From positions 2,639,918 to 2,703,917 of the forward strand of contig OY760687.1 in NCBI GenBank assembly GCA_963663945.1: 64,000 nucleotides of DNA. The letters run 5' to 3'. The notes beneath the pieces were generated by a model. The model was given only the letters and a program-made list of their open reading frames with translations. It did not search any database and had not been told where the DNA came from. The position numbers were made by a program, and so were the translations under genes. The stretch comes from Dehalococcoidia bacterium. GTDB taxonomy: Bacteria; Chloroflexota; Dehalococcoidia; Lucifugimonadales; UBA3495. Below, in pieces: positions 17,388 to 39,095 of this stretch; within the stretch, counting starts at the first letter, position 1, and each line of letters opens with the position of its first letter.

Positions 17388-18356
17388 ATAGTCCAGCCAG
17401 ATCAACGGGATCGTGAGATCGAAGCGCTCGAGGAACGCCTGTCGCGGCTGAGACAAGCGAACCCGAGCATCAATGAGAGCCTGGACTTCGACGCGGCGAT
17501 GGAGGGAGCTCTGGACTCTGCCCGTTTCCTCACGCGTGCGCGATACGGCGTGATGACCCTAATTGATGACGAGGGCCAGGTGCGGGACTTCCTGTCCTCG
17601 GAGATGACCGGCGAGGAAACGGAACAGGTGTGGATGATCCCGCAGAGATGACAGCTTTTCGAGTACCGGGGTTGTATCTCCGGGCCGCTGCGGATCCCAG
17701 ACCTGATGGATCAGGCCATATCAATGGGCCTTGCCGAATTCCGGCCGGCCCTGCCGGTCGGGCAGGCGGTCCCGTTTCTGGCGTCGCAGGTGTTCCACCG
17801 GGGTCAGCGGGTGGGCAACATTTTTCTGGCCGACAAGGACGGCGGCGAAGAGTTCACCCGGGCCGACGAAGAAAGTCTGGTGATGTTCGCATCCCCGGCG
17901 GCGCTGGTCATTGCCAACGCCCGCACGTACCGGGACGGTCAGCAGCCCCGAAACGATCTGGAGACCCTGGTGAACACCTCCCCAGTCGGCGTTGCCGCGT
18001 TCGACGCCCGGGCGGGGGCGCCGGCATCGTTGAACCGGGAGGCGATGCGCATCGTGGAGAGCCTGCGGGAACCTGAACAGTCGCATCAGGAACTGCTGGG
18101 GGCGGTGACCTGTGCGCGCGCCAATCGGCGCGCACTCTCGCTCTTGAATTTTCCCATGCCCGAGCTGTTGAGCGCCGGAGCAACCGTCCGATCCGAGGAG
18201 ATAGTCCTGCGCGTTCCCGACGGTCGGAGCGTGAACGTCCTCCTCAACGCAACCGCCATCCATTATAAAACCAGCGTGCCGGTTGGATTTATCGATAACC
18301 CCGCCCCACTCGAACGGGGACGCCGCTGCCAGTACTCATCACCGGCGTCGCGGTAA
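17388..18356 (+). pseudogene. Degraded, truncated paralog of the GAF-PAS hybrid kinase
   Basis: ATA in place of the start codon after RBS AAGGGGA. ERLSRLRQANPSINESLDFDA...RYGVMT, in-frame TGA near 17649, then GAF/PAS up to VLLNATAIH. Kinase, REC and wHTH domains are absent. Confidence 0.85.
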
Positions 18357-19288
18357 CCGATTTTGAAACGCTGGATCATCGCCCCCAAACCCTTTGCGGA
18401 AGTTGAAACGGGTACCTAACCAAACCCGGCACGTCTTGACGGTTTGCTGATGGACCAATCCATTCGCGGTCCAGTTGAACTCCGGGACCCCTCCCGATTA
18501 GACGGACGATAGGTCACCCCCGCCCGCTGGTCATGGAGTTCTACAGATGCGCTTCAGGTCACGGCCGTGGCGGGCCAGGTGATTTTCGGTCGGACGGTCA
18601 AGTTGCACAGTAACGCCGGAGCGGACACGGCGTCGTTACGCCGTGCGCGACCATTACGCTGGCGCCGGTTGGACCGCCCGGGTCGGCACCGAAATTGCAC
18701 AAAATTTGTGCTCGGATAAGACGGCCGGGGATCCTGGAAGAGAATCCCTGTCGGCACTCTGCGCCACGCCAGTTGCTAAAAAACTGTGGCTGCGCCGGGC
18801 ATTTGTAGCCAAACGCAACAGCCGGCACAGAACCATGCCCGTAAGACACAGCACCATGGGCCATGGTGGCCTCGGCGATGCCCTCTAACGACGGTCTGAC
18901 AAGGTGAACGTAGTCTGGAAATTCAACAACACCGGCCTGACCGTCGCCACGCTGTTCGAAACCGGGTAGAGACCCACCAGTGATGAATTCTCAGATGGCT
19001 CGGAAGGGATCACTCGCCGGCAGACTGCGCTGTGGGATTGGAAGCTTGGTCAGCCGAACCGACGACGAGGCCATCCCCAGAGTGGGGGCAGCGGCACTGG
19101 GCATTCGACGGCGCCGTGGTTCACGACAACCGCACGCTGGAGCCTCCACCGCGACCATCGGCTGACGGCTCAGCGTCCGGCGGACTCAAACCAATTCCGT
19201 CGTTCTCCATTGCTGCCATTTCATAGACGATTAACAACCGCACCGCGTGATCTGTGGATTTTTTGGTTTGCGGAGGCGGCTGGCAGTG

Positions 19289-19465
19289 TCACGACTCCTC
19301 ATGTATAGACCGTTCAACCAGCGCACGCTGGTTTTTGCTATTGGGCGCCGTTTCACCACGTTCCCACCGCCTCAAAGTACGTTCATCGATCTCGAGGCTA
19401 TGCGCGAATCGCTTTTGGCTAGTTTTCCCCGATTTCCGCACGTGCTTGATGCGCTCGCCTCTCAC
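19289..19465 (-). CDS. Small XRE/Cro-C1 helix-turn-helix protein
   Basis: RGERIKHVRKSGKTSQKRFAHSLEIDERTLRRWERGETAP; GTG start overlaps the recombinase stop (GTGA). Confidence 0.75.
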   Translation of the reverse strand: MRGERIKHVRKSGKTSQKRFAHSLEIDERTLRRWERGETAPNSKNQRALVERSIHEES

Positions 19466-20257
19466 TGACCCCGAGGAAAGGGATTGTTTGAAGTCGACCA
19501 ATATCGCGCCTGTCGCAAAGGCGGGGGAGCGCCCTTGCCCGTCTCCACCATTCCATGTAAATTCCGATATGGGGTGCGCCACACTTCGAGGTCTTCTCTG
19601 TAGTCCATCGCTTGGAAAAGTGCGTAGAAGGCTTTCATGGGCCGGAACCCCACTACCTCCCGGATTTCCAGATCAACATAGACGCTGTGGAACACCGCCA
19701 ACAACAAGCGATTGCGCTGACCGGCTTCGGCTGCTGCCCATAGTTCTTTCAGGTCGGCCAGGATCTTGACCGTCTCGGCCGCGTCATCCAGTTCCGGGAC
19801 ATAGATCGTGGTCAGTTCAGCCTCGGCGTTTTCTTTGATAATCAGATAGCGTTCCTTGGACACGTCGCCTTCCAGGTACAGTTCCTGAGCCCGCTCGATC
19901 TTTCTCTGCAGAGCCTCGCGCCTTTTGGGGCTTTCGTTCCGGTCGGTTCCTGCGACGTAGTTTTTTGACTATCCAGTCAACCCAGTCGGGCCGCAGGTTG
20001 AACCCGCGGAAGATCTAGTCGACCTGGTATTCAAACCCGCGACCGACAAACGATTGGCCGACATGAGCGCAGAGTCGGTCCGTGGCTTTTCGGGCCACCA
20101 CGTAATAGGTCTTGCCATCTTGCCCCTGTCTCTGCGACCACTGCTTCGTCCTGTACCGGTGACAGCGCAGCAGGCTAGTGAGCATGTGAGGGTTCGGGCT
20201 GGTGCGGCTGACCGAAGCCGATTTCCGGGATCGGTCGAGGGTGGTGCGTGATGGCAT
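19462..20257 (-). pseudogene. C-terminal remnant of a large serine recombinase (Zn-ribbon + coiled coil)
   Basis: PHMLTSLLRCHR...KTYY...CAH (degenerate Zn ribbon), stop near 20015, frameshift in an A-run near 19965, then REALQRKIERAQELYLEGDVSKERY...RNRLLLAVFHSVYVD...MVETG. No catalytic domain. Confidence 0.75.
19524..19550 (+). other. tmRNA/tRNA-Ala-like 3'-end fragment; putative attachment site
   Basis: ...CCCGTCTCCACCA. CGTCTCC-A-CCA would pair with a GGGGACG 5' strand including G3.U70. It is read antisense as MVETG in the recombinase tail. The T-arm part is degenerate. Confidence 0.55.
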
Positions 20258-20400: not shown

Positions 20401-23400
20401 TTACGGGGTGTTCACCCGGTGGCGGTGCTGGTCCTCGACCCAGGGGTGTTTGACGAAGGCCTCGTCAGTCTCGCCGGCGGCGGTGATAACCGAGCCGTTC
20501 AGCTGCAGGCCGTTCGAGCGCATGTACACTCCGTCGTCGTCGCGGTCCTCGGCTACGACGGTGTAGTGGAAGTGGAGCGTGTCGCTCGTGGAGTCCTGGG
20601 CCGAGTATTGGGCCAGACGCAGCGTCTCACCGATGATCAGCCGGAAGAAGGGCGACCCGCCGGCGGTGTTCAGGTCGATGTCGTCGTTGAACCGTACGGT
20701 CGCGGTGATCACATCGCCGGTGCGGTAGGTTCTGTCATCGCCGGCGTCGCTGGCGAGGGCCAGATTGGTGATGTAGCGGTAATGTCTGGGCAGGATTTTG
20801 TGGTCCGGGAATTCGCCGTCGAGGCGACCAGGCCGTTGGTGTTCCAGGATTGCGTCCCTTCCTGTCGAGGCGTGGCGGATTGAACCGCGGCCCGCGTGGA
20901 GCTGGTTGGCGCCCATGTAGATCCCACTATGGTCCCTGGTTCTCTGTGGAATGGTCCATGAGAAATACAGGGTCCGGCTGCCCGAGCCGCTCGAGTAGCG
21001 GAGGTAGGGCGCGTTGTCGGCGCCGGGGGAGTCGTCGACGCGCAGGCGCATGTGTGGCGTGCCTTTCGTCGTGTCGACGACGACCGAGGCGTCGAAGGTG
21101 ACGCTGAACGATATGGTCTCGCCAATGCGGTAGGTGTCGCCGCTCCGGGGGCTGGATTCGATCCTGACGCCCCGGTTGATGATGCGTGGTGCGGCGTTGA
21201 CCCGGTGGTCTGGCTGGTCGTCCAGTTCCAGATGGAACAGGTTGGCGTGGAGTGTGTGGCCGCTCAGGTCGACGCTGACGCTCTGACCCGAGATCGAGTT
21301 TCGGGGGATGGAAACGCCGTCCGGGTCCGAGTCCTGTTCGACCACGGTGTAGGCGAAGGTGAGGACGTGGCCGGATGCGTCAGTGCTTGAATAATGGGCT
21401 TCGCGCTGGCTTTCGCCGATGGTCAGTGGCAACCAGAGCTCGCCGCTGGCGGTTTCGAAGGTCACGGTGACCGGCTGGTCGAACGTCACGGTCGCGGTGA
21501 TCACATCCCCGGCGGCGTAGGTCCGGTCTGCGCCCGGGTCGCTGCTGATGGCGAGCCCGGTGATCACCGGCCGGATGGCGGCGATTGTAGATCCGTCCAC
21601 CTTGTGTCCGGCGAATATGCCGGGCGCCGGGTGTGTGAGGTCGGCGTCCGTGCCGATCTGGGAGTGGGTGATCGATGCGCCATCCAGGTTAACGGCGTTG
21701 GCTGCCATGGATACGCCATCGTCGTCGCTGTCGGCCTGGACCACGGTGTACGAGAACACCAGGCTGCGGTCAGATGAACTACTGGCGTCATAGGCGGCGG
21801 TGCGGAGGTTGTCGCCGATGGTGAATTCCAGGTACGGAGATCCGTCAATGACATCGACCGTCACGTCGGAATCGAAAGCCACGATGAACGTGATGATTTC
21901 GTTCTGGCCATAGGTATCGTCGGAGGATGGCGTGGATGCGATCTGCAGGCCGCCCGTGACGATCAGCGGGATCTTGTTGACCACGTGGGCCGGATTGTCG
22001 GGGAGGGCCGCGTGGGCCAGGGACGCATCGACGGTGTCGTCGCTGTTCCTGATGGTTGCGCCGTTCAGCGATATTGCGTTGGCGGCGATGGACACGCCGT
22101 CCTGGTCGCTGTCTTCGGCGACGACGGTGTAATAGAAGTGCATGTCGATGGTTCCGCTAATGGAGCCGACGTATGCGGCGTTTCGCACCGCGGCGCCGAT
22201 GGTCAGCGCGATGGTCGGCGTCCCGTTGGTTTCGTCGATGTTCACCTCCTCATCGAAAGTCACGATGACGTTGATCGTGCTGCCGGTGATGTAGGTCTGG
22301 AGCCGGCTGGGATCGGTACCGAACTCGATACTGCTTATCCTGGGCCGCGGGATGTTGATCACGCTGCCGTCGACCTTGTGCTCGGCAAGAGTCCCGCTGT
22401 CGCCGGCCGGGCCGTGTCTCAGGTTGGCGTTCCGTCCGGTGGTGATGTGGGTGATGGTTCCGCCGTCCAGGAACAGCTGGTTGAGGCTGATGAATATGCC
22501 GTTGCTGTCCCGGTCGCCCGACTGGACGGTGTAGTCGAACTCCAGGGTTTTTGTACCGGAGCCGCGGGCGTAGCGGAAGCGGGCTCTGTCGTCGTCGTCG
22601 TTGTGGTAGGCCGCGAACAGCACGTCGACCCTGGGCGTGCCGTTGGTGGTGTCCACGACAACCACGGAGTTGAAAGTGACGCTGATGGTGATGGTCTCGT
22701 TCAGGCCGTAGGTCTCGTCGCCCAGGGGAGACGACGTGACGTCGACGCCGTTGTTGACAATGGCCGGGGCCCGGTTGATCCGATGGCCTGTCTGGTTGGG
22801 CAAGGCCCGATGGGCCAGGGATACGTCGTTTGCGGTTCCGGCGTACCGTATCGTGCCGCCGTCCAGTGTCAGGGAGTTGGCCGCGATGGACGGGCCATTG
22901 TTGTCGCGGTCCTCCGCGACGATGGTGTACGAGAAGGTGAGCACCAGGCCGGATGAGTCGGTGCTGGTGTACGCGGCGTTTCGAGTCATGGAGCCAATGG
23001 TGAGCGGTAGGTAGGGCGTGCCGCCGGTGGTGTCCACCGTTACCTGTTCGGCGAACGTCATCGCCACGGTGATGGTGTCACCGGTGGCGTAGGTGGCATG
23101 AATTCCCGGGTCACTGCTGATGCTCAGGGCGGTGATGTCCCGCCGGCCGACCTGGTGCTGCGGGAACACACCGTTGGTCCCGGGCAGCGGGTGGCTGAGA
23201 TCTGCGTCCCTGCCCGTGGTGAAGTGTTTGATGGCGCCGTTGTTGAGCGCCAGGGCGTTGGCCGCGACGGATACGCCATCCTCGTCCAGGTCGCCGGATA
23301 CCACGGCGTAGGAGAACGTCAGAATGCGGTTGGTGGCGTCGATGGTGGTGTAGGTGGCTTGCTTTGCAGTGCTGCCTACGGTGAGCGCCAGGGTCGGTGT

Positions 23401-26400
23401 GCCGTTGGTGGTATCCACGATCACGTCGGAGTCGAAGGTGACGCCGAATGTGATGGCCTCTCCGGGCGCGTAGGGGTTACCGCTGGCCGGGCTGGACGTG
23501 ATGTCCACGCCGTCAGTGATTATCAGCGGTATCTTGTTGACCAGGTGGCCGGTCTGAGTTGCCAGGGCCGCATGGGTCAGGGAGGCGTCAACGGTGTCGG
23601 CCTTGTTCCTGATGGTGCCGGCGTTCAGCGCCAGCGAGTTGGCGGCGATGGCTATGCCGTCCTGATCGCTGTCGTCGGAGATCACGGTGTAAGAGAAGGT
23701 CAGGACCGTCTCGCTGGAGTCGATCGACGTGTAGCCGGCGCTGCGGGCAGTGTCGCCGATCGTCAGCGCGAGGCTGGGCGTGCCGTCGGTGGTGTCCACC
23801 ACGATTGCTTCGCTGTAGGTCACGGCGGCGGTGATAGCGTCGAAGGTGGCGTAGGTGTTGTCGGTTCCGGCGTTGCTGGTAAGCGTGACGCTGGTGATCG
23901 TGGGCGCGTCAGGAATGGCGTCGACCTTGTGACCGGCGAACAACCCGCTGGTCCCGGGCAGTGGGTGGCTGAGATCCGCGTCCCTGCCGGTGGTGGTGTG
24001 TTTGATCGTGCCGCTGTTGAGGGACAGGGCGTTGGCGGCGACGGATACGCCGTCGGTATCGAGATCGCCGGCAACCACGGTGTAGGAGAAGCCGAGGGTC
24101 TCGCCGTTGGCGCTGGTCGAGTTGTAGGTGGCGGTCTTGGAGGCGCTGCCGAGGGTGAACGCCAGCAGCGGGAACCCTCCGGCGGTGGTTACGGTGACGG
24201 GAGCATCGAAGGTGGCGGTGAAAGTGATCGTTTCACCGACCAGATAGGTGTCGCCGGATGCGGGGTTGGATGTGATCTGCACGCCGCCGGTGACGATCAG
24301 CGGTATCTTGTTGACCAAGTGGTCAGCTTGCGCGAGCAGGATTGTGTGGCCGAGGGAGGCGTCGGCGGTGTCGGCTTTGTTCCTGATCGTGCCGGAATTC
24401 AATGCCAGGGAGTCGGCGGCGATGGATATGCCGTCCTGGTCGCTGTCGTCGGCAACGACAGTGTAGGAGAAGGTCAGGACTGTCTCGCTGGAGTCGATCG
24501 ACGTGTAGCCGGCGTTGCGGGCATTATCTCCGATGGTCAGTGTGAGGCCGGGCGTACCGTCGGTGGTGTCCACGGCGACGGCTTCGTCATAGGTCACGGT
24601 TGCGGTGATCGTATCGCCGGTGGCGTAGGTTTGGTCCGTGCCCGGGTTGCTGGTCAAAGCGACGGCGGTGACGGCCGGTTGGCCCGGGTCCGGGATCGTG
24701 CCGCCGTCGATAGTTGTTGAAGCCAGGGTTGTTTGAGCGGGGAGCCTGAGTATGGCGGTGAGTTCGGATTCCGCGTCTGTGATCGCGCCTCCGTTGAGTT
24801 CGAGGGCGCTGGAGTCAATTTCGATCCCGTCGGTGTCGTGGTCGCCTGGTTGGACGGTGTACTCGAAATAGAGTGTCGCGGTTCCGGAACCGTCAGTGTA
24901 GTCCAGGTACGCGGTCTGGTCGGGATTGACCGTATCGCCCATGGTGAAGGCGATGCGGGGGTTTCCGTCGGTGGCGTCGACTGTGACGGAGTGGTTGAAC
25001 GTGAGGCTGGCGCGGATGGTCTCGCCGTTTCCGTAGGGTCCGTCGGTTGCCGGTGTTGAGACGATCTGGAGGCCGTTATTGATTATGTAGGGGTGATTTG
25101 CGGTTCCCTGAACGCTGATGTGCAGTTCCTGCGGCTGGCCGAATCCAATGTTGACCCAGTTGCTGCTGGCTCTGGTGTGCCAGTTTTCGATGGTCCAACC
25201 GGCGACCGTTCCGGGGTCTTCCTGGTCGTCACGGGCCATGGAGAACCGGGCGTGGGCGTTGTTGACGCAGCCGCTGGTGCACCGTATGACGAACATGTAG
25301 GCCGTCGAGGGTTCGAGCTCGATGTTGTTGGGGTCGGTGAATACTGGCATCGTGAGATCGGCGACGGGACTGGTGTGCGTGAGCGTAGTGAGTTTGGCGC
25401 CCCGCTGGTTGTTTGTCAGGTGGTGGACGGAGGCTTCCAGAGTGATGGTGTCTGCGGACCGCCCGTTACGGGTGATGGCGGTGACCGATTCCAGGCGGTA
25501 GCCGCGTCCGGATCCGGTGCGGAATACCTGGCCAATGCCGCTGTTGGAACTGTCGATTTTTAGCGAACTCTCGCGCGGGGAGTTGAAATTGGCGACCAAT
25601 ACAGTGGCTGCGGGTGCGTCGGTTCCGTTGGTGGCACTTGACGCGTTTACGGAGTGGCCGGTGAAGACTCCGTTAGTACCGGGCAGAGGGTGGCTGAGGT
25701 CGGCGTCCTTGCCGGTGGTCGTGTGTTTGATGGTGCCGTTGTTCAGTGCGATGGCGTTGGCGGGCACGGACAGTCCGTCGTCGTCCAGGTCGTCGTCGGC
25801 CACTGTGTAGGAGAAGGTCAGGATGCGGTTGGTGACGTCGACGGCGGCGTAGGCGGCGCTCTTCGCGGTGGTTCCGACCGTCAACGCCAGGGTTGGTGTT
25901 CCGTCCGTGGTGTCGATGGCAACGTCGGAGTCGAAGGTGACGCCGAAGGAGATGGTCTCGTCCGGCCGGTAGGTGTCGCCGTTGGAGGGAGCGGACGTGA
26001 TGTCTATGCCGTTCGCAATGATCAGCGGAATCTTGTTGACTAGGTTAACAGCTTGCGCGGGCAGGGCCGCATGGCTCAGGGACGCGTCGATGGTGTCGGC
26101 CTTGTTCCTGATCGTGCCGCTGTTCAGGGCCAGCGAATCGGCAGCGATGGATATGCCGTCCTGGTCGCTGTCGTCGGAGACCACGGTGTAGGAGAAGGTC
26201 AGGGTTGTTGCGGCGGAATCGATGGTGGTGTAGCCGGCGCTGCGGGCGTTGCTCCCAACGGTGAGCGTCAGACTGGGCGTGCCGCTTGTGGTGTCGACGG
26301 CGACGGCTTCGCTGTAGGTCACGGCTACGGTGATCGCGTCGCCGGTGGCGTAGGTGTTGTCGGTTCCGGCGTCGCTGCTCAGAGTGACGCTGGTGATGGC

Positions 26401-29400
26401 GGGCACGTCGGGGTCTCCGTCGGCCCGGTGGTTGGGGAAACTGCCGCTTGCGCCGGGCAGCCCATGGCTGAGGCCGGCGTCCTTGCCGGTGGTCGTGTGC
26501 TTGATCGTGCCGCCGTTTAGCGCCAGGGCGTTGGCGGGAACGGACAGACCGTCCTCGTCCATGTCGTCGGCCGCTACGGTATAGGAGAAGGTCAGGATCC
26601 GTTTCGTGGCGTCGATGCCGGTGTAAGCGGCCTGCCGGCTGGCGTTGCCGAGGTTGATCACCAGGTACGGGGTTCCGTCAGTGGTGTCGACGTCGACGTT
26701 TGCATCGAAGGTCACGGTGAACGTGATCGTTTCGTCGAGTTGGTAGGTGTCGCCGCTGGCGGGAGTGGACGTGATCTGCACGCCGCCGGCGACGATCAGG
26801 GGTATTTTGTTGACCACGTGGCCAGTTTGGGTATCCAGAGCCGTATGGTCCGGGGATGCGTCCATGGTGTCGCCGGCGTTTCTGATCGTTCCGGAGTTCA
26901 GGGCGAGCGAATTGGCCGCGATGGAGATGCCGTCCTGGTCGCTGTCGTCGGAGACCACGGTGTATGAGAAGGTGATCTTCCGGCCGAGGGCGCCGGTTTC
27001 CGTGTAGCCGGCATCCCGGGCGTTGTCGCCGACGGTGAGTGCGAGGCTGGGTGTGCCGTCGGTGGTATCCACTGTGACGGGCACGTTGTAGGTCGCGGCC
27101 ACAGTGATCACGTCGCCCGCGGCGTAGGTGCCATCTGCGCCGGGATCGCTGGTGATGTCGAGGGCGGTGATTTCCGGGCTGGACACCACGATCTTGACGC
27201 GGTAGGTGTAGGTCGCGGCGCTTGCCGTCGTGACCGTGACCACAACTTCCTCGGGCTCCTGGGTGAGGTCCACCTGGTGGCCGGTCGCTTCGGTGTCGGA
27301 ATCGGCCGGCTGGATGGTCACGGTGTGGTCGGACGGCGCGGTGGCGGTGACGGTGGTGCTGGTGGCGTCCGCCGGGAACGTGGCCGTGTAGCGGAGGACC
27401 GTTGGGCCGAAGTCTGGCGCCAGAGTCCCGCCGCTGAGCGAAAGGTCGGACAGATTGGTGAAATCGGCCAGCAGCTTGCCGTCCAACTTGTGGTTGCCGA
27501 ACGTTATCTCGGAGACAGGGTCGGGATGGGTGAGCAGGGCGTCTAGGCCAGTGGCTGCGTCCCGGATGGTCCCACCGTTGAGTTGCAGAGCGTTGCCGCG
27601 GATGCGGATGCCGTTGTTGTCCCTGCTGCCTTGAGGGACTCGCCACTCGAACTGCAGGGTCGAAGATCCGGAGCCGCGCTGGTATTCGGCCTTGCGGGTG
27701 GCCGCGAGTCTTCCGGCGTTGCCCACTTTGAATGTCATGGTGGGTGTGCCGTCTGCGGTGTTCACCACGACCGGGGACGTGAAGGCGACGCTGATGACTA
27801 TGATCTCGTTGCGCCCGTAGGTGTCGGCGGCGGCTAGCGGCATGGAGGTTATGGTCACGCCGCCGTCGGCGATGGCGGGGGCGACCGTAACCGCGTTGAC
27901 CTTGTGCCCAGGGAACAGGCCGTTGGTACCCGGTAGCGGGTGGTCGAGGTCGGCGTCCTTGCTGGTGGTCGTGTGCGTGATTGTGCCGCTGTTCAGGTCG
28001 ATGGCGTTGACGGGCACGGACAGGCCGTCCTCGTCCAGGTCGCCGGAGGCTACCGTGTAGGAGAAGGTCAGGATCCGTTGCGTGGCGTCGATTCCGGTGT
28101 AGGCGGCCTGCCGGTTGGCGCTGCCGAGGGTGATTGCCAAAGCAGGGGTTCCATCGGTGGTGTCAACCGCGACGTCGGAATCAAAGGTCACGGTGAACGT
28201 GACCGTTTCGCCGGCCTGGTAGGTGTCGCCGCTGGAGGGAGTGGACGTGATCTGCACGCCGTTCGCGACGATCAGGGGTGTCTTGTTGACCAGGTGACCG
28301 GTCTGGGTCTCCAGGGCGGCATGGGCCAGCGAGGCGTCGGCGTCGTCATCGTCGGCGGTGATCGCGCCGTTGTTCAGCGCCAATGAGTTAGCCGCGATGG
28401 ATATGCCGTCCTGGTCGCTGTCCTCGGAGACCACCGTGTACGAGAAGGCGATCGTGGTCTTGGCCTCATTGTGCCCCGTATAGGAGGCGGCACGGGCGTT
28501 GTCGCCAATGGTGACAGCCAGGCTCGGCGTGCCGTCGGTGGCGTCAACATCTACGGCCTGGTCGTAGGTCACGGCCACGGTGATCGCGTCGCCGGTGGCG
28601 TAGGTGCCATCGGAGCCGGGATCGCTGATGATGGCCAGGGCGTTGATGGTGGCCAGGTCGGTGATGGTGGCGCTAGTCAGCGCGATGTTGACGCGGTACA
28701 CCCGGTCTGCGGAGTCTGCCTTGGAGACGGAGACGGTGATTTCGTCGGGCGCCTCGGTCAGATCCACCTGGTGGCCGTCGGTCTCGGTGTCGGAGTCCGC
28801 CGGCTCGATGGTTATGGTGGCGCCGGACTCTGCGGTGGCGGTCACGGTGGTGCTGACGGCGTCTGCCGGGAACATGGCGATGTAGCTGACGGTTGTCGGT
28901 TCGAATGTTGGCGAAAGGGTGGCGCCGCTGAATGACAGGGCGGAAAGACTGGCGAAAGCGGGCATCAGTCTGCCGTCCACCTTGTGGTCGGCGAAGATGC
29001 CGTTACTGCCGGGCAGAGGGTGTGTCAGCAGGGCGTCGGTAAGATTGGTCGTGTTCCGGATGGTGCCGCCGTTCAGTTCGAGCGAATCGGCCAGGATTCG
29101 GATGCCGTTGTTGTCCCTGTCGTTGGCGAGAACCTTCCACTCGAATTGGAGGGTGGAAGATCCGGAACCGCGCTGGTATTTGGCTTCACGGTCTCGCGAT
29201 CGGGCATCGGCGTTGCCGATCCTGACGGACAGGCTCGGCGTTCCGTCTGTTGTGTCCACCACGACCGGCGCGGTGAAGGCCATACTGACGACGATGGTCT
29301 CGTCAAGGCCGTAGGTGTCGGTTTCGGCGATCGGCGTGGAGGATATGGTAATGCCGTCCGCGGCGATAGCGGGTGTGACCGGCGATCCGTCCGCCCGGTG

Positions 29401-31927
29401 GTTGGGGAAACTACCGCTTGTGCCGGGAGGCTCGTGGCTGAGGTCGGCCTCCTTGCCGGTGGTCGTGTGCGTGATTGTGCCGCTGTTCAGGTCGATGGCG
29501 TTGGCGGGAACGGACAGGCCGTCCTCGTCCAGGTCTTCGGTCGCAACGGTGTAGGCGAAGGTCAGGATCCGTTTCGTGGCGTCGATGCCGGTGTAGGCGG
29601 CCTGCCGGTTGGCGTTGACGAGGGTGATTGCCAAAGCAGGGGTTCCATCGGTGGTGTCAACCGCGACGTCGGAATCAAAGGTCACGGTGAACGTGACCGT
29701 TTCGCCGGCCTGGTAGGTGTCGCCGCTGGCGGGAGTGGACGTGATCTGCACGCCGTCGGTGACGATCAGCGGTATCTTGTTGACCAGGTGGCCGGCCTGG
29801 GTGGGCAGGGCCACATGGATAAGCAAGGCGTCGGCGTCGTCTTCATCGGCGGTGATTGAACCGCTGTTGAGCGTCAACGAGTTCGCGGCGATGGACACGC
29901 CATCCTGGTCGCTGTCCTCGGAGACCACCGTGTAGGAGAAGGTGAGTACGGTCTTGGCCGAGTTGATTTCCGCATAGGTGGCGGCGCGGGCGTCGTCGCC
30001 GATGGTGACAGCCAGGCTCGGCGTGCCGTCGGTGGTGTCGATCTCTACTGCCTGGTTGTAGGTCAGGGCAACGGTGATCGCGTCTCCCGTGGCGTAGGTG
30101 CGGTCGGTTCCGGCGTCGCTGGTCAGCGCCACGCCGGCGATTACCGGCGCGGTCGTGGTCGCGTCAACCTTGTGGCCGGAAAACAGTCCGCCGGTTCCCG
30201 GCGCCGGGTGTTCGAGGTCTGCGTCGTTGGCGCTGACGTTGCCAGTGATCGCGCCGCCGTCGAGGATCAGGGCGTTCGCAGTCATGGAAATGCCATCGTC
30301 GTCCTCGTCTCCAACGGCGATGGTGTAGGCAAAGGTGAGTATCCGGTTGTCGGGGCTGATTGAGGTGTAGCCGGCCCGCCTGGCGTCGTTGCCCATCGTG
30401 AACTGCAGGTAGGGCGTTCCTTCGCTGGTTTTGACCGTGACCGGGGTGTCGAATTCGACGGTGAAAGTGATGGTTTCGGCCGGGCCGTAGGTGTCGTCCG
30501 CGGCGGGATCGGACGTGATTTGTACGCCGTTTTCGACGATCATCGCGTCCGGGTTGACTCGGTGCTGGGTCTGGTCGGGTAACCCGGAGTGTCTGAGGGC
30601 GGCCCTGGTGCCGGAGCGCAGGTATGTGATGATGCCGCCGTTTTCGTTCAGGGGGTTTTCGGGGATTGAAATGCCGTCGTTGTCGGTCAGCGATTGGTCA
30701 ACCGTGTGCGAGAAGATGATCGTCCGGCTGTCGTCGGCCGTCTCCGAGTAGTCGATCGGCTGCTCATCAGAGCCGAACTGGACGCGGATGTTGGGTGTGC
30801 CGTTGTCGGTGTCCACCAGTATCGGGAGATCGAAGGTGACGGCGATTTCTATGATGTCGCCAATGACGTATGTTTCGCCATCGGTGGGTTGGCTGATAAC
30901 TTCGATGGATTCGATGCGGGGTGTGATGGGCGCGACGACGGCGATGGTGTAGGTCATCGTGGCGGCCCCCTCCTTGGTCGCTGTAAGGACGATTTCGTTG
31001 GTCCCGTGATGGAGTGTCACCTGGTGGCCGTCGGCAACGTCGTCGGCGTCTTCGGGCATGATGGTGTAGGACACGCCGTCTTTGGGCGTGACCGTCACCG
31101 TAGTGACGGTGGCCCCGTGGTCCGGAGTCGCCGTGTAGAGCGTTTTGCGGGATCTGAATTGCTGGTCCAATGTGACGTTCGTCAGATGGACCTGGTCAAG
31201 GGCGGCCAGCCGAGAGTTCCGGCGGTCGTCAAGGTACTGGTTTGAGATACGGTGGAGGGCCCGGTGATTGAGGTTGGCGTTCCCGCCGCCGGGGGAGTGG
31301 GTGATGGAGGAGCCTTCGGGCACGTTGATGCTGTTGGCTGAGAGCCCGAAGCCCACAGCCGTTTCGAGCAGCCCGGCTTCGTCGTTGAGCAGTTGGAACA
31401 CGAGGGCGTTGGTGCCGGATCCGCGCGCGTAGGGGAAGTCGGTTGGGCCCTGCGGGGAATCGTTGAGCCAGATGTCCACGGCCAGTGTGGGCCGGCCCCC
31501 GGTGAGGTCCACCACCACGGGGTGGTCGAAGGTGAACTCGAACTCAACCGGTTCATCGTTCCTGTAGACGTTCGTGTTCTGGTTCAGCGGACGGCTGATC
31601 ACCCTGACCCTGGTGATTCTTGGGATCACCAGCGGTTCCCGATGTATCTCCACCGTGTAGGGGACGTCGATGTGTCCTGGCTTGGTGACCAGTATCTCTA
31701 TGAAGTTGTTGCCCGGTTCCAGCGGCACCTGGTGGCCGGGCTGGAAGTCGTGGGAATCGGGCGGCGTGATTGTCACGTCGGTGTCGACGTCCCCGGTCGC
31801 CGTGACGGTGGTTGCCGCAACACCGCCGTACACAGTGGCGGCGTAATTGATCAGGTCTGGTGAGAAGTCGGGCTGCAGGACGATGTCGGTGATATCCAGG
31901 TCGGTGAGCTTCAGGTCGGTGAGCTTG
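20401..31927 (-). pseudogene. Giant repetitive surface protein/adhesin, C-terminal part (separated from its N-terminus by IS21)
   Basis: More than 3,800 uninterrupted codons. About 25 Ig-like ~125-aa repeats (TYxxGDxITxxVTF...GTPxL...LTFSYTV...DxDxDG...LNGGTI...HxV), cadherin-like beta-sandwich units (LSxLSxSGxTLxPxF...GHQVDL) and an internal copy of the N-terminal domain. Confidence 0.9.
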
Positions 31928-32018
31928 GCCAGTGATAGACGACAATAAGGAATGCCTCTTGCGCCGACTATTCTTGCCGGTTGGGATGGTGTAAATCGTC
32001 CGGCACGGAGGTGCCGGA

Positions 32019-33521
32019 TTGATCAAGGACCGACAAGTCAGACTTTTGAGGCAAAAACGTATGGAAGGAAAAACACAGGAGACGGCGGCCGCCATGTCTG
32101 GGATGAGCGTGCGCTCGGCGCGCAAATGGCAGAGTGGCCCGTTGCCGTCGGAGACCAAACCGGAGCGCTGGTGGCGCACTCGGTCCGATCCCTTCGACGG
32201 GGTGTGGGAAGAGGAGATTGAGCCACTGCTGCGGGACGACCCCAAGGGCAAGCTGAAGGCAACGACGATTATCGAATGGCTGGAGGAGCAGCATCCCGGC
32301 CAGTTCAGCACCTCCCAGCTGCGCACGCTGCAACGACGATTACAGGACTGGCGGGCGCTGAATGGTCCGGACCAGGAGGTGTACTTCCCCCAGGAGCATC
32401 CGCCGGGACGGGAGGCCCAGTTTGATTTCACCCACTGCAGCGCCCTGGGGGTGACCGTCGCCGGTGAGCCCTACCCCCACCTGCTGTTTCAGCTGATCCT
32501 CAGCCACTCGGGCTGGCGCTACGCGGAGGTCGCCGCCGGCGAGACCTTCCTGGCCCTCAAGCAGGGATTACAGAATGCGCTCTGGGCCCTGGGCGGCGTA
32601 CCGGAGGTGGTGCGTTCCGACAATACCTCTGCTGCCACCCACGAGATGAAACGCAGCCGAGGCCGGGCGCTAAACGACAATTACGCCGCCCTGCTGGACC
32701 ACTACGGTGTCCGATCCACCCGCATCAATCCTGGCAAGAGCCATGAAAACGGCGTCGCCGAGCACGCCCACTACCGTTTGAAAGACGCCGTGGACCAGGC
32801 CCTCATCCTGCGCGGCAGCCGCGATTTCCACACCGCCGACGACTACGCCGGTTTCGTCCGGAAGATGGTGGAGAAGCGCAATCGCCTGGTGCGGGGGAAG
32901 CTGGAGCAGGAAATGGCTTGCCTAAGACCCCTGCCGCCAGCCCCCATGCCGGAATACGCCAACTACCAGTCCAAGGTGCGCCGGTGGAGTACCATCCAGG
33001 TGGCGGGACGCAGCTACAGCGTCCCGTCCCGGCTCATTGGCAAGGTGGTACAGATCCGCCTCTATTCCGAGCACGTGGAAGTGTACTACAAGGGCCACTT
33101 TGTGGAACGCATGGCGCGCGTGCACGGTGATGGGGAAGTAAACGTCAATTACCGCCACGTCATCAATTCCCTGGTGCGCAAGCCCGGAGCATTCGCCCGG
33201 TACCGGTTCAGGGAGCAGCTGTTTCCCACCTTGCGCTTCCGGCTCACCTACGACGCGCTCAGGCAGTGGCGTGGGGAGCGCGCCGACGTGGAGTACGTGC
33301 GCATCCTGCACCTGGCGGCCACCACCATGGAGGTCATGGTGGACAGCGCCCTGTCGCTGCTGCTGGAGACCGGTCAGCCCTTCGACTACGCCGAGGTGCG
33401 GGAACTGGCCGAGCCCAGGGTGCCCCAGGCTCCGGTGCTGGTCCTCTCTGGGAAGCCGGACCTGAAGATCTACGACGGTCTGCTCACGAGCAGTACGGCC
33501 ATGGTGGGGGTGTGCGCATGA
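32019..33521 (+). CDS. istA: IS21 transposase IstA
   Basis: WRTRSDPF, EAQFDF, VRSDN, KSHENGVAEHAH, YSVPSRLIG. Confidence 0.93.
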   Translation: MIKDRQVRLLRQKRMEGKTQETAAAMSGMSVRSARKWQSGPLPSETKPERWWRTRSDPFDGVWEEEIEPLLRDDPKGKLKATTIIEWLEEQHPGQFSTSQLRTLQRRLQDWRALNGPDQEVYFPQEHPPGREAQFDFTHCSALGVTVAGEPYPHLLFQLILSHSGWRYAEVAAGETFLALKQGLQNALWALGGVPEVVRSDNTSAATHEMKRSRGRALNDNYAALLDHYGVRSTRINPGKSHENGVAEHAHYRLKDAVDQALILRGSRDFHTADDYAGFVRKMVEKRNRLVRGKLEQEMACLRPLPPAPMPEYANYQSKVRRWSTIQVAGRSYSVPSRLIGKVVQIRLYSEHVEVYYKGHFVERMARVHGDGEVNVNYRHVINSLVRKPGAFARYRFREQLFPTLRFRLTYDALRQWRGERADVEYVRILHLAATTMEVMVDSALSLLLETGQPFDYAEVRELAEPRVPQAPVLVLSGKPDLKIYDGLLTSSTAMVGVCA

Positions 33522-34309
33522 TGGACACCCCCACCAGCGTGATCCAGGAGCGCATCGGCGAGCTATGCCGCGAATTCAAGCTGCCCACCATGGGCGCTCA
33601 GTCGGTGGCCCGTTTCACTGAGGCTGGCCACGGCGAGGCCCTGTCCACCTTCCTGGAGGTGCTGGAGCAGGAGGCCGAGGATCGCCGCCACCGGCGCATC
33701 AACCGGCTGCGTCAGGCGTCCCGGCTGCCCTCGGGCAAGACCTGGGAGACCTTCGAGCATCACCGGATGCCCCTGACTCTTCGTCAACAGATGGACCATC
33801 TGGCCCAGGGCAGTTTCGTGGAACACGGCGTCAACGTGCTGGCCTTCGGGCTCCCCGGCACCGGCAAGACCCACGCCCTATGCGCTCTGGGCCACCGCCT
33901 GGTGGAAGCCGGACACTCCGTCCTCTTCGCTCCAGCCTACCGCCTGGTGCAGGACCTCCTCGCCGCCAAGCGCGACTTCGACCTGCCCCGACAACTGCGC
34001 AAGCTGGACAACTTCGACTTCCTCCTCCTGGACGATCTCGGCTACCTGCCCCAGGGGGCCGAGGAGTCCGAGGTCCTCTTCACCCTCATCGCCGAACGCT
34101 ACGAACGCCGGTCCCTGGGCATCACGTCCAACCTGGTCTTCTCCGAGTGGGAGCGCATCTTCGCCAACCCCATGGCTACCGCCGCAGCGATTGACCGGGT
34201 GGTCCACCACTCCGTCATCCTGGAATTCGACGTCCCCAGCTACCGGACTGACGCAGCACAGCAACGCGGCGAGACTGCTGCGGCCGAGGAGGTGAACCGG
34301 CAAAACTAA
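33518..34309 (+). CDS. istB: IS21 helper ATPase IstB
   Basis: Walker A GLPGTGKT, Walker B LLLDDLGY, ITSNLVFSEW, AAIDRVVHH; ATGA overlap with istA. Confidence 0.95.
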   Translation: MMDTPTSVIQERIGELCREFKLPTMGAQSVARFTEAGHGEALSTFLEVLEQEAEDRRHRRINRLRQASRLPSGKTWETFEHHRMPLTLRQQMDHLAQGSFVEHGVNVLAFGLPGTGKTHALCALGHRLVEAGHSVLFAPAYRLVQDLLAAKRDFDLPRQLRKLDNFDFLLLDDLGYLPQGAEESEVLFTLIAERYERRSLGITSNLVFSEWERIFANPMATAAAIDRVVHHSVILEFDVPSYRTDAAQQRGETAAAEEVNRQN

Positions 34310-34346
34310 TCGACGATAAATCGGCAAGAATGGTTGACGCGGGACA

Positions 34347-35425
34347 GCCAGCGGCCTCTCGATGCTGCTGTCGATCCTGGCGCGGCCGTAGCCCCTGGGA
34401 ATGGGGTGCCTCAGCAGCGCGGCGAGGTCATAGCCGGTACGGTTGATGGTGCCGCTGTTGAGCTGGAGGCTGTTGGCGTGGATGTAGATCCCGTTGGCGT
34501 CCTGATCGTCGGGCAGCACCCGGTATTCGAAGACCAGGGTGTCGGTGCCGGAGCCGCTGGCGTAGCGCATGCGCTCCGTGCGCGCCGGGTTGTCGGGGTC
34601 ACCGAGGCTGAATTTGAGCGTGGGCGTACCCGCATCGTCGTTGACGGTCACCGAATCGGTGAAGGTCACGGCCGCCTGGATCAGTTCCCGGTTGCCGTAC
34701 ACGTCGCCGATGACCGGACTGGAAATGATCTCGAAACCGTCCTCGACAACCCGGGGATGGCCGCTCGTGCCCTGGACGCTCATCTTCAGCGAGTGGATGC
34801 GGGGTTTCGGGGTCCAGTTGTCGCTGGGGAGTATTCTCCCGTCGTCGATGGACCAGCCCTCGGCGGATCCCTCGTCTTCTGCGTTGTCGCTGACCCTGCG
34901 GATGTTCAAGTAGTTATTGTTCGCGCAGCCGAAGGAGCACTGGAGTACGAACATGTACGCCGTTGAAGGTTCAAGCTCGATTTGTTCGCGCGCCCAGAAC
35001 CGGTTCATTTGGTTGTTCTTTTTGTCGCCGTACGAAAATCCAGTGAGCCTCGCGCCGCGGCTCCCGTCGTCGTTCACCGCGTGGAGGCCGGCGTTCAGCA
35101 CGATGTATTTCTTGTCGACGCTGGTTCCGAACTTGACGTCGATGGAGTCAAGCCTGATGCCGAGTTGCGGTCCGGTTCGGAACACCTGGGCGGTGCCGTT
35201 GAGGTTTACGTTGATCGTGTCGTCATCGACGTCCCTGGCGTCCACGTTGGAAACCAGGGTCTGGATCTCGTCAGTCACCGGTTCCTGGGCGGCCACTTTT
35301 GGGGCGGCGCCCAGCGTGACGGTAAGCATGATGGCGATCGAGGTGAGCAGCGCAGTGGCCAGCAATGCGCCGGCGGCGATGGCACGCATGTGCGGGGTCC
35401 GGTCGAGGTGGGCTGGCAACGGCAT
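34347..35425 (-). pseudogene. Giant surface protein, N-terminal part (signal peptide, N-domain, first repeat)
   Basis: RBS GGAG and ATG at 35425; signal peptide ending KVAA-Q. Removing the IS and one GCCAG copy joins ...IERPLA to KLTDLKLTDL... in frame, giving about 4,201 aa. Confidence 0.88.
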
Positions 35426-35738
35426 GGAAGGCTCCGCTCGCGGCCAGGTGTGCCACCGACGTAACTGGCTGTGAACGAGTGATGCAGCCGCCACCGAGCC
35501 GTCGTTTTACGAACCGCCCAGCACGGGTCACCCTCTCGATCCCAACCAAACTCCGCCCTATAAGGCCGCGAAAGTATTGGGTGCAGAAAATGCTAGCCGG
35601 CCATGCCTGCAAAGCGTGTGAATGGGCAAATAACGGACGCAATGCCACTAGCCGGGTGGGCAAAATGCCGCTTGCCCGAACCCGCCGTCCGCGAGCGTCT
35701 GAGGGGTCAGCGGCTGCAGGTGAGAAAACCCCGCTTGC

Positions 35739-35863: not shown

Positions 35864-37279
35864 CTATGATGCGCGCGCTTTGCTCCGCTCGCCGGAGACC
35901 GCCCCGTCGGGGTTCACGTCAAGGTCCGACGCGTCTTCTGCTTGATGTACGTTCCCGCTGCCCATCCGAAAAACTGCAACGATCAGCGTGCCGCCAATCA
36001 CGAAAGCCATGTAGGCGAACAGGGAAGTCGCGTGCCACAGGTACCCCAACTTCAGCAAATCCAGGGCTTCCTGCCTGGTGTACCCCAACTGCTCGTAATT
36101 GAGATCCCAGGACCACACCAGGTTGTGGTCGGGCAATACCATCGGGACGTTGGGCGCCAGGTAAATCGCCAGGACAGTCGCCATGCCCAGCACGGTTCCA
36201 ACCACGGCCACGGTGAACACAGTGGACAAGACGAAGCGCCGGTCGCTTTCGCTGGGATTGATCATCGGATCGCGGATCACCAGCAAAACAACGAAGACCG
36301 CAGCCGTTATCAGCATAACCGCTGCCAATTGCATCCACACCCACGCGTTGGACAGCACGACCACCGTCACAAAGACGACGCCTGTCGGTGGCAACACTGC
36401 CCATGCCGCTCTCAGGTGGGCGCTGCGATTGCTCCGGGCGCCGGTATTATGCCATCTCCAGAGCAGGTGGAAAGCCAACCCGGCGGATGCCGAAAGCGTC
36501 AGGTTGAGCAGGAGGGCCAGCATGAAGACGATGGAGGTACCGCCCCACTCGACGATACTGTAGAAGTTGTAGTGGTCCAGGCCCAGCGGAGCGAAGTGCA
36601 AAAGTGGCGTCGTCAATAAGACGAACAACGTCACCCAGAAGAACTCCCGGAGCCCGGCTTCAGGATCCCCCAGCAGGAATCCTTGTCCAAGCGCCAGGCA
36701 CACTGCCAAAGCTACGAAAGTGACCGGAACCCAGGCGAGGTCGCCGCCCAGAAATTCCATAATGAGTCCAAGGGCCGCGATGCCGACTGCCAGCGGCAGG
36801 AACCTCAATAGCAGGAACCTGAGCACATCGTTCCCAAATGCAAAAGGTCGCAGAATTGTTTCAGCCTGCTGCCGATCCGCACTGACAGAACTTGCCTCCG
36901 CCTCGTCGGCCTGCGCCCGTCGAACGCCCGGTGCGTCAGCCTTCCCGGTGGCCCGGCCAACAGCCGTGGCGTAGTCCGGCGCCAGACCGGACAGCAATAT
37001 CAACCCTGCAACTTCATCGTCCGACAGTTCCAGGGCTTTCCCGAAAGTGCGAAACCGTTCCACGCTGGGAGAAGTTTGTCCGGTTTCCCATCTGGACACG
37101 GTCGCGTGGCTGTACCGCTCACCGTACTCTCCGTCCACGTCCACTTCGGCCATGAGACGGAGCAGGTCATCCTGGGTCAGCCCTCTACGACCATCGTTCC
37201 TTTGGAATGACTCCCGGTAGGCACGCATGAGGAATCCTGCTTGCGCGGCCCTGGGTTTCTGCGAATCACGATTGGCCAT
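35864..37279 (-). CDS. XRE-family HTH fused to a multipass membrane domain
   Basis: MANRDSQ...GLTQDDLLRLM...YSHATVSRWETGQTSPS...FGKALEL, then about 8 hydrophobic segments; 471 aa. Confidence 0.85.
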   Translation of the reverse strand: MANRDSQKPRAAQAGFLMRAYRESFQRNDGRRGLTQDDLLRLMAEVDVDGEYGERYSHATVSRWETGQTSPSVERFRTFGKALELSDDEVAGLILLSGLAPDYATAVGRATGKADAPGVRRAQADEAEASSVSADRQQAETILRPFAFGNDVLRFLLLRFLPLAVGIAALGLIMEFLGGDLAWVPVTFVALAVCLALGQGFLLGDPEAGLREFFWVTLFVLLTTPLLHFAPLGLDHYNFYSIVEWGGTSIVFMLALLLNLTLSASAGLAFHLLWRWHNTGARSNRSAHLRAAWAVLPPTGVVFVTVVVLSNAWVWMQLAAVMLITAAVFVVLLVIRDPMINPSESDRRFVLSTVFTVAVVGTVLGMATVLAIYLAPNVPMVLPDHNLVWSWDLNYEQLGYTRQEALDLLKLGYLWHATSLFAYMAFVIGGTLIVAVFRMGSGNVHQAEDASDLDVNPDGAVSGERSKARAS

Positions 37280-37756
37280 CGTAGGTACACTCGTAAGGAA
37301 TTGATTGGTTAAGCATTGTCTACGATTGAGCGATCCAATGCGGTTTCGCCAATGCTCCAAGTTGTTTCGGCGTGAGTAAGATCGAAATAGACGGGCCAGA
37401 AGCCGCGCCAGAGAGACCATCATCCAGTCGGTGGCACGGTTGAGGCCCGGATGGACTACCCAATCCAGAATCCCCCATTCACTTTGATTGTGGCAATTGC
37501 CAAACGCCCCATTTGACAAGGGCGTTTGCCCCTGGCGATTGTGCGATGAAAAACACGACCTCCAAGTGCGTCTGCACTTGGGTGGAATCAATCCCCAACC
37601 CTTCGTCCCGGCGTATTGCTTGCAGGGACGTTGCGAACGTTGTTCAACCTCCTGGCCAACCGCGGATCTCGCACGTCGGGTATTTTTGCCCAGGTACTTT
37701 GGCCCTTTTGATCGCTGGCAAACGTACCTTGCGACCATGCCTGTCGCTGTATAGAT

Positions 37757-39079
37757 TTGTCGGCAGTATCCCCACAGAACGCCCACCGGCTCCCATCCCG
37801 TAACACAACCAATCGCAGGATGTCGGCATACCGGATGTTGCTTGTATCGGAATGGAACACGGTCGTGAGGCGGGCCTCCCGGGTAGTCAACACTTTGCGG
37901 ATGCGCAATATCACGTTGAACCAGTTCGATCCGGATGGGTTGAAGTACTTCACGACCGTCTCGGTTCGGGCACACTGGCTGATCTCTGTAATATGCTTGA
38001 TCGAACTGGTGTATCGCCCACACTACGGAGCGATCAAATTTGCCGTCTATGCGGTGTTCATGGCGGCGCTGATCGGTTTTACCGCGTACCTTCACTACCG
38101 TCTGCGGTCCACTCGGCCAGTCACCTGGCACTGGCTGCTGGCGCTCTATGGGCTCGACATGCTGCTGGTCTCGGCCGGCACCGCGATCAGCGGCGGTTTC
38201 AGCCACGATTTCTTCTATCTGTTCTACTACCCGGCCATGGCCGCCTTCGCGGCGATGTTCACTTCGTTTCGGCTCAACATGCTCTGGGTGACGATGGTGT
38301 CCCTGGTCTATCTGGGCATGTCGCTGACGGTGGGTGAAGGCTTGGAGTTTGGAGATCGGGACGAAAAGACGCTGCTGGCGCGAGTGGCGGTCATGTATGC
38401 CGTCGTTGCCGCGGTGAACGCGGCTTCCCGGTTCGAACGCATCCGTTGGCAACAGTCGGTGGAGCGCGAGCGCGCCCTCGAGCGTGAGCGGGTCGAGGTG
38501 TCTCAGGCGATCCATGACACTGCCGCCCAGTCGGTTTTCCTGATCGGAATGGGTATCGACACTGCGAAGGAACTGGCTGGGGATGGGAACCCCGAGCTGA
38601 TCGCCACGCTTGAAGCCACCTCCGGGCTGTCGCGGTCCACGATGTGGGAGCTGCGGCGTCCGATTGACATCGCGGGCATCTACGAGGGTCGGGAGTTGGG
38701 CCGGGCGCTTCGGTCCCACGTAAGGAGCTTCACCAACGTTACGTCGGTGGTGGCCGAGATGACGGAGACGGGAGTGGAGCCGCCTCTTCCCGTTGAGGTT
38801 AAGAGCAGTCTATTTTCAATCGCGCACAACGCGCTGACCAACGCGTTCCGCCATGCCGGGGCGAGCCGGGTATCGATCGGTCTGGAGTTCGGGGAACGGG
38901 ACATTCGCCTGCGGGTGTCCGACGACGGGGCAGGGCTTCCCGATGATTACGCGGAGCGCGGCCACGGTTTCGCCAACATGCGCACGGCTGCGGAGCGGAT
39001 GGGCGGCCGTCTCTCGGTTGAGCAGAAGGGAGAGATGGGCGGCGCGACTATAACCTGTCTGGCGCCCGTGGAACGGTAA
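37757..39079 (+). CDS. Membrane sensor histidine kinase, NarX/DesK-like; paralog of 4120-5355 (real start probably 37895 or 37901)
   Basis: About 6 TM segments, SQAIHDTAAQ, SRSTMWELRRPID, IAHNALTNAFRH, SDDGAG. Confidence 0.9.
   Translation: MSAVSPQNAHRLPSRNTTNRRMSAYRMLLVSEWNTVVRRASRVVNTLRMRNITLNQFDPDGLKYFTTVSVRAHWLISVICLIELVYRPHYGAIKFAVYAVFMAALIGFTAYLHYRLRSTRPVTWHWLLALYGLDMLLVSAGTAISGGFSHDFFYLFYYPAMAAFAAMFTSFRLNMLWVTMVSLVYLGMSLTVGEGLEFGDRDEKTLLARVAVMYAVVAAVNAASRFERIRWQQSVERERALERERVEVSQAIHDTAAQSVFLIGMGIDTAKELAGDGNPELIATLEATSGLSRSTMWELRRPIDIAGIYEGRELGRALRSHVRSFTNVTSVVAEMTETGVEPPLPVEVKSSLFSIAHNALTNAFRHAGASRVSIGLEFGERDIRLRVSDDGAGLPDDYAERGHGFANMRTAAERMGGRLSVEQKGEMGGATITCLAPVER
37805..37849 (+). 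promoter_or_regulatory. Conserved non-coding element type 2, copy B
   Basis: ACAACCAATCGCA...ACCGGATGTTGCTTGTATCG, similar to 17263-17299. Confidence 0.45.
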
Positions 39080-39095
39080 GGGAAGGGGGACCGCA

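Follow-up and report, generated by a model that had tools for sequence, protein, structure and literature searches.

We analysed a 64,000-nt window from the chromosome of a Dehalococcoidia bacterium (contig OY760687.1, positions 2,639,918 to 2,703,917), in which an insertion sequence (IS) assigned to the IS21 family splits a gene of 4,201 codons for a giant repeat protein. The source genome is a single contig of 3.94 Mb with 63% G+C, a sponge-type SAR202/Dehalococcoidia chromosome. Coordinates are positions in this window unless marked as genome positions, and 'joined protein' denotes the product of the two gene flanks fused with one GCCAG kept. In the list of open reading frames (ORFs), the locus appears as two minus-strand ORFs, 20401..31833 (3,810 aa) and 33878..35494 (538 aa), with two overlapping plus-strand ORFs in between, 32019..33521 (500 aa) and 33266..34309 (347 aa). 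An earlier interpretation made from the letters of the window (the sequence-only reading) had taken this arrangement for a clean and recent knock-out of one large gene by an IS21 insertion, and both the anatomy of the locus and the empty sites in four relatives bear it out. The coordinates and both ORF sizes that it gave are correct; one correction applies to the 538-aa ORF, of which about 156 codons are antisense to istB. The locus comprises the following features:

20401..31932, minus strand: 3′ gene part, 3,843 codons plus a stop (20401-20403), with 25 Ig-like 'A' repeats, four cadherin-like domains and a second choice-of-anchor-R-like domain.
31928-31932, no strand: left copy of the target-site duplication, GCCAG, read from the junction sequence.
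31933..34346, plus strand: whole IS21-family element, 2,414 bp, intact, TG...CA, one of 35 full-length copies in the genome.
31933..31982, plus strand: left terminal region of the IS, with one sub-terminal repeat (CGACTATTCTTGCCGGTT) and inverted-repeat pairs I4 and I5.
31967..31995, minus strand: weak sigma-70-like site in the left end of the IS (TTTACA-17-AATAGT, 9/12 match), directed outward to the 3′ gene part; a hint only.
32019..33521, plus strand: istA, transposase of 500 aa (NF033546; Pfam rve and Mu-transpos_C_2), with DDE candidates D136, D201 and E243 or E248.
33518..34309, plus strand: istB, AAA+ helper ATPase of 263 aa (NF038214, PF01695), with Walker A GLPGTGKT and Walker B LLLDD.
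33878..34346, minus strand: IS-derived tail, foreign to the native protein, of about 156 codons antisense to istB that lengthen the truncated ORF to 538 aa.
34295..34346, plus strand: right terminal region of the IS, with two sub-terminal repeat copies (AACCGGCAAAACTAATCGACG and AATCGGCAAGAATGGTTGACGC) and inverted-repeat pairs I4 and I5.
34347-34351, no strand: right copy of the target-site duplication, GCCAG, read from the junction sequence and single-copy in orthologous empty sites.
34347..35425, minus strand: 5′ gene part, from ATG 35425, with a hydrophobic signal or anchor (aa ~15-42), a choice-of-anchor R domain (aa 59-220) and the first Ig-like 'A' repeat (aa 251-344).

The inserted segment lies on the plus strand, starts with TG and ends with CA. 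At the left junction GAGCTTGGCCAG is followed by TGATAGACG (in a longer reading GAGCTTGGCCAG by TGATAGACGACAATAAGG), and at the right junction GACGCGGGACA is followed by GCCAGCGGCC (in a longer reading GGTTGACGCGGGACA by GCCAGCGGCCTC). The perfect GCCAG duplication of the sequence-only reading is present on both sides and single in the relatives. A 5-bp flanking match has odds of ~1/1024 by chance; because of these odds, and because 27 of the 35 copies in the genome carry a 5-bp duplication, we do not regard the match as fortuitous.

The host gene runs on the minus strand from 35425 to 20401. When its flanks were joined by script with one GCCAG, they gave 12,606 nt, or 4,201 codons, that read across the join as ...ERPLA/KLTDL... 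(IERPLAKLTDLKLTDL; GRARIDSSIERPLAKLTDLKLTDLDITD) and contain the terminal stop only. Two further claims of the sequence-only reading stand with this result, namely that excision restores the frame (...RPLA/KLTDL...) and that 12.6 kb of joined coding sequence holds no further stop or frameshift; no second lesion was found there. The insertion point corresponds to residue ~359 and falls in the linker that joins the first Ig-like repeat to the first cadherin-like domain, so that the signal sequence, the N-terminal domain and one repeat lie before it and 25 repeats beyond, as had been stated. The 5′ gene part stops inside the right copy of the target duplication: the 538-aa ORF consists of 383 native codons counted from an upstream GTG (359 from ATG 35425) and ~156 codons of the IS. 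The earliest in-frame start of the 3′ gene part is GTG 31833, and this part has no signal sequence of its own.

Four relatives were available for comparison: L001, L002 and L003 were found by searching with the N-terminal fragment, one genome per species, and L015, on a 4.1-Mb ENA contig, by protein search. All four (4/4) have an empty site with a single GCCAG. Their nucleotide alignments to the upstream flank end exactly at 34347, and the alignments restart at 31932/31931 (31911 for L002), leaving a 5-nt overlap; the target is therefore single-copy in the relatives. The empty site of L002, GAGAGGCCGCTGGCCAAGCTCACCGACCTG, matches the rejoined window sequence letter for letter. Flank identity to the window is ~96–97% for L015; for the upstream flank it is 96% in L015 and 91% in L001. 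The two flanks are collinear with their counterparts in the orthologous loci, which means that the insertion came without rearrangement.

The orthologs are not naturally two genes. L001, L002 and L015 have single genes of 3,366, 3,649 and 3,941 aa, respectively, and the L003 ortholog (OZ247427.1) is divided into 983 + 2,652 aa by a 1-bp deletion. This deletion lies at positions 12740-12770 of L003 in a two-base A run, where, relative to L015, GATCAAGGAC has become GATCAGGAC (GATCA-GGAC); it may reflect a second inactivation that arose independently in this gene, or else a mistake in the assembly.

Judged from its sequence, the element is a member of the IS21 family, with every defining feature that could be tested. 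The sequence-only reading had called istA and istB intact, and both products exceed their NCBIfam equivalog cut-offs: IstA scores 206.9 bits against NF033546 (cut-off 160) and IstB 220.6 bits against NF038214 (cut-off 200). Matches to Pfam models are 48.6 bits for Mu-transpos_C_2 and 30.3 bits for rve in IstA, the latter slightly below its own cut-off of 32.6, and 166 bits for PF01695 in IstB. The istB ATG at 33518 overlaps the istA stop as ATGA (33518-33521). The termini of the element read TGATAG...GGGACA, and a motif of the TTCTTGCCG type is found inside both ends, with one copy on the left and two on the right. Ends of IS21 carry multiple L1/L2 and R1/R2 repeats and a terminal CA, and a target duplication of 5 bp has been seen experimentally (PMC10122671). 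The element is like IS21 and IS5376 in the order istA-istB, the overlapping stop and start, the scores of both proteins above the equivalog cut-offs, the TG...CA ends, the binding-site-like sub-terminal repeats at both ends, the 5-bp duplication and the length of ~2.4 kb. It differs in being an apparently distinct member from a sponge-type SAR202 genus, with copies 84–92% identical in congeners, and in forming two subfamilies (2,414 and 2,435 bp, 96% identical) that swap short patches in the window genome.

We next consider the distribution of the element over the chromosome. The genome holds 35 full-length copies that make up ~2.2% of the chromosome, as well as several fragments and two nested insertions, in which a full IS lies within the same element (genome 130382-134429 and 3188198-3191396). 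The 2,414-bp subfamily has 17 copies, at least 99.5% identical to the window copy. Among the 18 copies of the 2,435-bp subfamily, 17 are ~96% identical to it; the remaining one, at genome 3013994, is also 2,435 bp long and retains the 21-bp insert, but is 99% identical and otherwise resembles the 2,414-bp subfamily. Long repeats (at least 95% identity) occupy 3.15% of the chromosome, and most of them are this one element. Duplications of 5 bp were found for the window copy and 26 others, with no shared target sequence or preference among the 27, and one copy has 8 bp. In eight full copies the target duplication is missing, a sign that recombination or deletion mediated by the IS may have occurred. 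The element is probably active in transposition, to judge from these 35 copies, with 9 of the 17 in one subfamily and 12 of the 18 in the other matching their subfamily consensus exactly.

When the flanks of the other copies were joined, ~15 copies proved to break stop-free frames of more than 300 codons. The split genes identified by Pfam encode a major facilitator superfamily (MFS) transporter, a TrwB-like ATPase, a tyrosine integrase, a TnpB-like gene product and a leucine-rich-repeat (LRR)/RTX protein. The last of these is a eukaryote-like surface protein with leucine-rich and RTX repeats, whose 748-codon frame is broken by the IS at genome 705209-707643. Copies 84–92% identical occur in several congeners. 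Because the genome holding L002 has one copy and the genome holding L003 has none, the burst is lineage-specific. The insertion studied here is one event in a very recent burst, during which a single IS21-family element has been eroding many genes. An enrichment of transposases and mobile elements has been reported for sponge symbionts (PMC4850255). The present case resembles IS expansions described in host-associated bacteria and sponge symbionts in that one element is present in dozens of near-identical copies and splits many unrelated genes; it differs in that almost every long repeat belongs to one IS21-family element and in that the burst is lineage-specific.

Several lines of evidence bear on the age of the insertion. 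Three sites (518, 1139 and 1178) set the window copy apart from the consensus of its subfamily, and the variant at site 518 is common to two other copies, one of them 48 kb off. All three differences are sister-subfamily states, and the same is true of every variant among the 17 copies; dating by 'private substitutions' was dropped for this reason. The variants fall into short patches (257+293; 518; 824-876; 1139+1178), exemplified by the copies at genome 71888-74301, 914353-916766 and 1448916-1451329 and the window copy at 31933-34346. They are best read as short conversion patches or retained ancestral states, not as new mutations. The 17 copies (41 kb) carry essentially zero new substitutions and the window copy carries zero new point mutations; the pattern suggests that sequence is often transferred between the IS subfamilies by gene conversion, with new point mutations all but absent.

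The host gene gives a consistent picture in the comparison with intact orthologs that the sequence-only reading had proposed. By the Nei-Gojobori method, the ratio of nonsynonymous to synonymous substitution rates (dN/dS) between the window and L015, L001 and L002 is 0.39, 0.35 and 0.32, respectively; for the intact pairs it is 0.34 (L015 vs L001) and 0.33 (L015 vs L002). Window pairs (0.32–0.39) are indistinguishable from intact pairs (0.33–0.34), and therefore no relaxed evolution is detectable on the window branch. A recent insertion is well supported by these comparisons, and the very recent loss proposed earlier agrees with the lack of new IS mutations, the lack of a second lesion in the gene, dN/dS values like those of intact orthologs and the absence or single copy of the element in the genomes of two relatives.

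The product of the intact gene would be a giant repeat protein. Its sole strongly hydrophobic stretch, residues ~15-42 (MRAIAAGALLATALLTSIAIMLTVTLGAAPKVAAQ), follows a basic n-region, precedes VAA/Q and is long enough for a signal peptide or a membrane anchor alike. The search for a C-terminal sorting signal found no LPXTG in the whole protein and no hydrophobic window in its C-terminal half, and the protein terminates 10 residues past the last repeat, in line with the earlier observation that a C-terminal anchor is not evident. N-terminal anchoring or release of the protein is plausible on these features. The choice-of-anchor R domain (NCBIfam NF041539) matches at residues 59-220 over the full model length with 40 bits (cut-off 30). 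A second copy of it, 35% identical, occupies residues ~2470-2650 of the joined protein (window ~23480-24020); this copy is found in the window genome and L015 only and is absent in L001, L002 and L003.

Iterated searches with hidden Markov models (HMMs) revealed 26 repeats of ~127 aa and four cadherin-like beta-sandwich domains (PF12733, 59 bits). The ~127-aa repeat has no match in Pfam, and a sequence search of PDB with the repeat profile and the N-fragment gave no significant match. The repeat consensus contains ...TSxPxxxDTYxxGETIxxxVTFDxxVxVDTTxGTPxLxLxxG...LxFxYTVxxxDxDxDGxSIxANxLxLNGGTI... as its core. Its structure model is a beta-sandwich with a predicted local distance difference test (pLDDT) of 90.9, and a fold search with this model returned only weak matches to Ig-like, filamin, CBM21 and S-layer folds (best E 0.04, template modelling (TM) score 0.42). 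As these matches are weak and generic, no specific function can be derived from them. We find the repeat in no fewer than 246 further giant proteins, spread over many phyla and reaching into other sponge-associated lineages; about 10 (at least 10) other ORFs of the genome carry it too, one of them a 3,007-aa paralogue that shares the N-domain. Two overlapping plus-strand ORFs at genome 3582014-3585453, of 648 and 522 aa, each contain the A repeat and may be another frameshifted member of the repeat family.

Cadherin-domain genes are enriched in metagenome-assembled genomes from sponges and have been read as attachment factors (PMC8163846). The protein is like the giant cadherin- and Ig-like surface proteins of sponge-associated bacteria in its great length, tandem beta-sandwich repeats, PF12733 domains and choice-of-anchor domain. 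It differs from them in its main repeat of ~127 aa, which is without a Pfam model and has weak Ig-like fold matches in PDB, and in the absence of a C-terminal sorting signal, and a binding role here is putative. 'Adhesin' is a fair working label, taken from the domain types and the sponge-symbiont literature. Where the sequence-only reading spoke of a 'costly' 'adhesin', the surface-type repeat domains are indeed present; both words go further than these, Ig- and cadherin-like beta-sandwiches being generic.

Upstream of the giant gene (window 35864-41400, and the genes upstream at L015/L016), all relatives share the order of an XRE-type helix-turn-helix (HTH) membrane protein, a HisKA_3/GerE two-component pair and then a ~1,470-aa cadherin protein. 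A dedicated regulator of the giant gene among these neighbours is possible. Shortly downstream of the 3′ end of the gene, a 1,288-bp segment (window 18260-19547) is found twice in the genome at 95% identity or more.

The course of events at the locus may be pictured as follows. The IstA DDE transposase and its IstB AAA+ helper would have carried out transposition into the linker that precedes the first cadherin-like domain, and repair of the staggered cut would have produced the 5-bp GCCAG duplication. The upstream product would then comprise 383 native residues, with the signal or anchor, the choice-of-anchor R domain and one repeat, followed by ~156 nonsense residues, and the downstream 3,843 codons would have neither promoter nor start context nor export signal. 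The gene would be null in the sequenced genotype. The other repeat-bearing ORFs of the genome (at least 10, with the 3,007-aa paralogue among them) may buffer the loss. The surface role of the protein is likely, and the insertion was presumably neutral.

We consider it very probable that an active IS21-family element broke the 4,201-codon surface-protein gene in the course of a recent burst, leaving it null in the sequenced genotype, and that no selective explanation is needed. Four points weigh against this interpretation. The weak outward promoter-like site in the left end of the IS leaves some transcription of the 3′ part possible. The IS allele comes from one assembly, in which it may be the majority allele or a single haplotype picked by the assembler. 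The case for an adhesive role consists of the domain types and the sponge-symbiont literature (PMC8163846). The structure model of the N-domain (choice-of-anchor R), built from 6 sequences, is unusable, with a pLDDT of 40.

The second of these points leads to the most serious alternative, in which the sponge harbours a mixed population, some cells carrying the intact gene and others the IS allele, and the assembly displays a single haplotype; this would be a presence/absence variation and not a switch. Such a polymorphism would suit a highly active element with 35 near-identical copies and the existence of a ~96%-identical relative (L015) with an intact gene, and published work describes sponge symbiont populations as heterogeneous, with an abundance of mobile elements (PMC4850255). 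However, an exact look-up in the protein collection finds both gene fragments in this one assembly only; the sole cluster-mate, P0122 (178 aa, MCY4416120.1), is a contig-end fragment that ends before the insertion site and is uninformative. We see coexistence of the alleles as a tentative possibility, short of an expectation. The sequence-only reading had entertained population-level on/off variation; a reversible on/off device, in which precise excision of the IS would produce phase variation, is a further alternative. Removing the IS with one GCCAG does restore the frame exactly, but any simple insertion with a target duplication shares this property, reversion would need rare recombination across 5 bp, and there are no site-specific features and no common sequence among the 27 duplications. 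IS21 is not known to excise precisely. As precise excision is not known to be part of IS21 transposition, and site-specific features are lacking, we regard a reversible switch as barely credible. Hardly any probability attaches to an assembly artefact either. Since the genome is a single contig of metagenome type in which a 2.4-kb repeat occurs 35 times, one might suspect that a copy was misplaced into the gene during repeat resolution. Such an error would not account for the exact doubling of a 5-bp target found only once in four relatives; the locus is also collinear with its orthologs on either side, and the window copy has its own combination of variant sites.

Selection could enter if loss of the gene were favoured, for instance as an escape from host recognition or from a phage that uses the protein as receptor, with repeated inactivation in the clade. 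The 1-bp deletion in the L003 ortholog (983 + 2,652 aa) would be a second independent lesion, a second eukaryote-like surface protein (LRR/RTX) is split by the IS in the same genome, and repeat number (21 to 26) and domain content change fast among orthologs. Yet the L003 frameshift could be an assembly error, the split genes are functionally diverse, and dN/dS of 0.3–0.4 indicates purifying selection on the gene overall. Moreover, the giant gene makes up 12.6 kb of 3.94 Mb, or 0.32% of the chromosome, so that the probability of at least one of 35 insertions falling in it is ~10%, and in any repeat-bearing ORF (53.7 kb) ~38%. Given this target size and 35 copies, no selection or targeting is needed. 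Loss favoured by selection is therefore unlikely in our view. The broader idea that host or phage selection against displaying cells inactivates the gene recurrently in sponge-associated SAR202, with IS bursts acting as a population-level generator of surface-protein variants in the symbiont, is more speculative and would come as a surprise. The insertion by a bursting IS21-family element is a real event but an ordinary one in kind, one of many in this genome.

The main worth of the finding lies in annotation and in a small piece of natural history. Two ORFs that were called unrelated (3,810 and 515/538 aa) are one gene of 4,201 aa interrupted by an IS, and the ~127-aa Ig-like repeat, shared by hundreds of giant proteins yet lacking a Pfam model, could deserve to be defined as a family. 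The burst of the element agrees with the known mobile-element richness of sponge symbionts. If both alleles are present in the population, the locus would be a convenient marker of strain-level variation of a surface protein inside the sponge; otherwise, it would be an ordinary young pseudogene.

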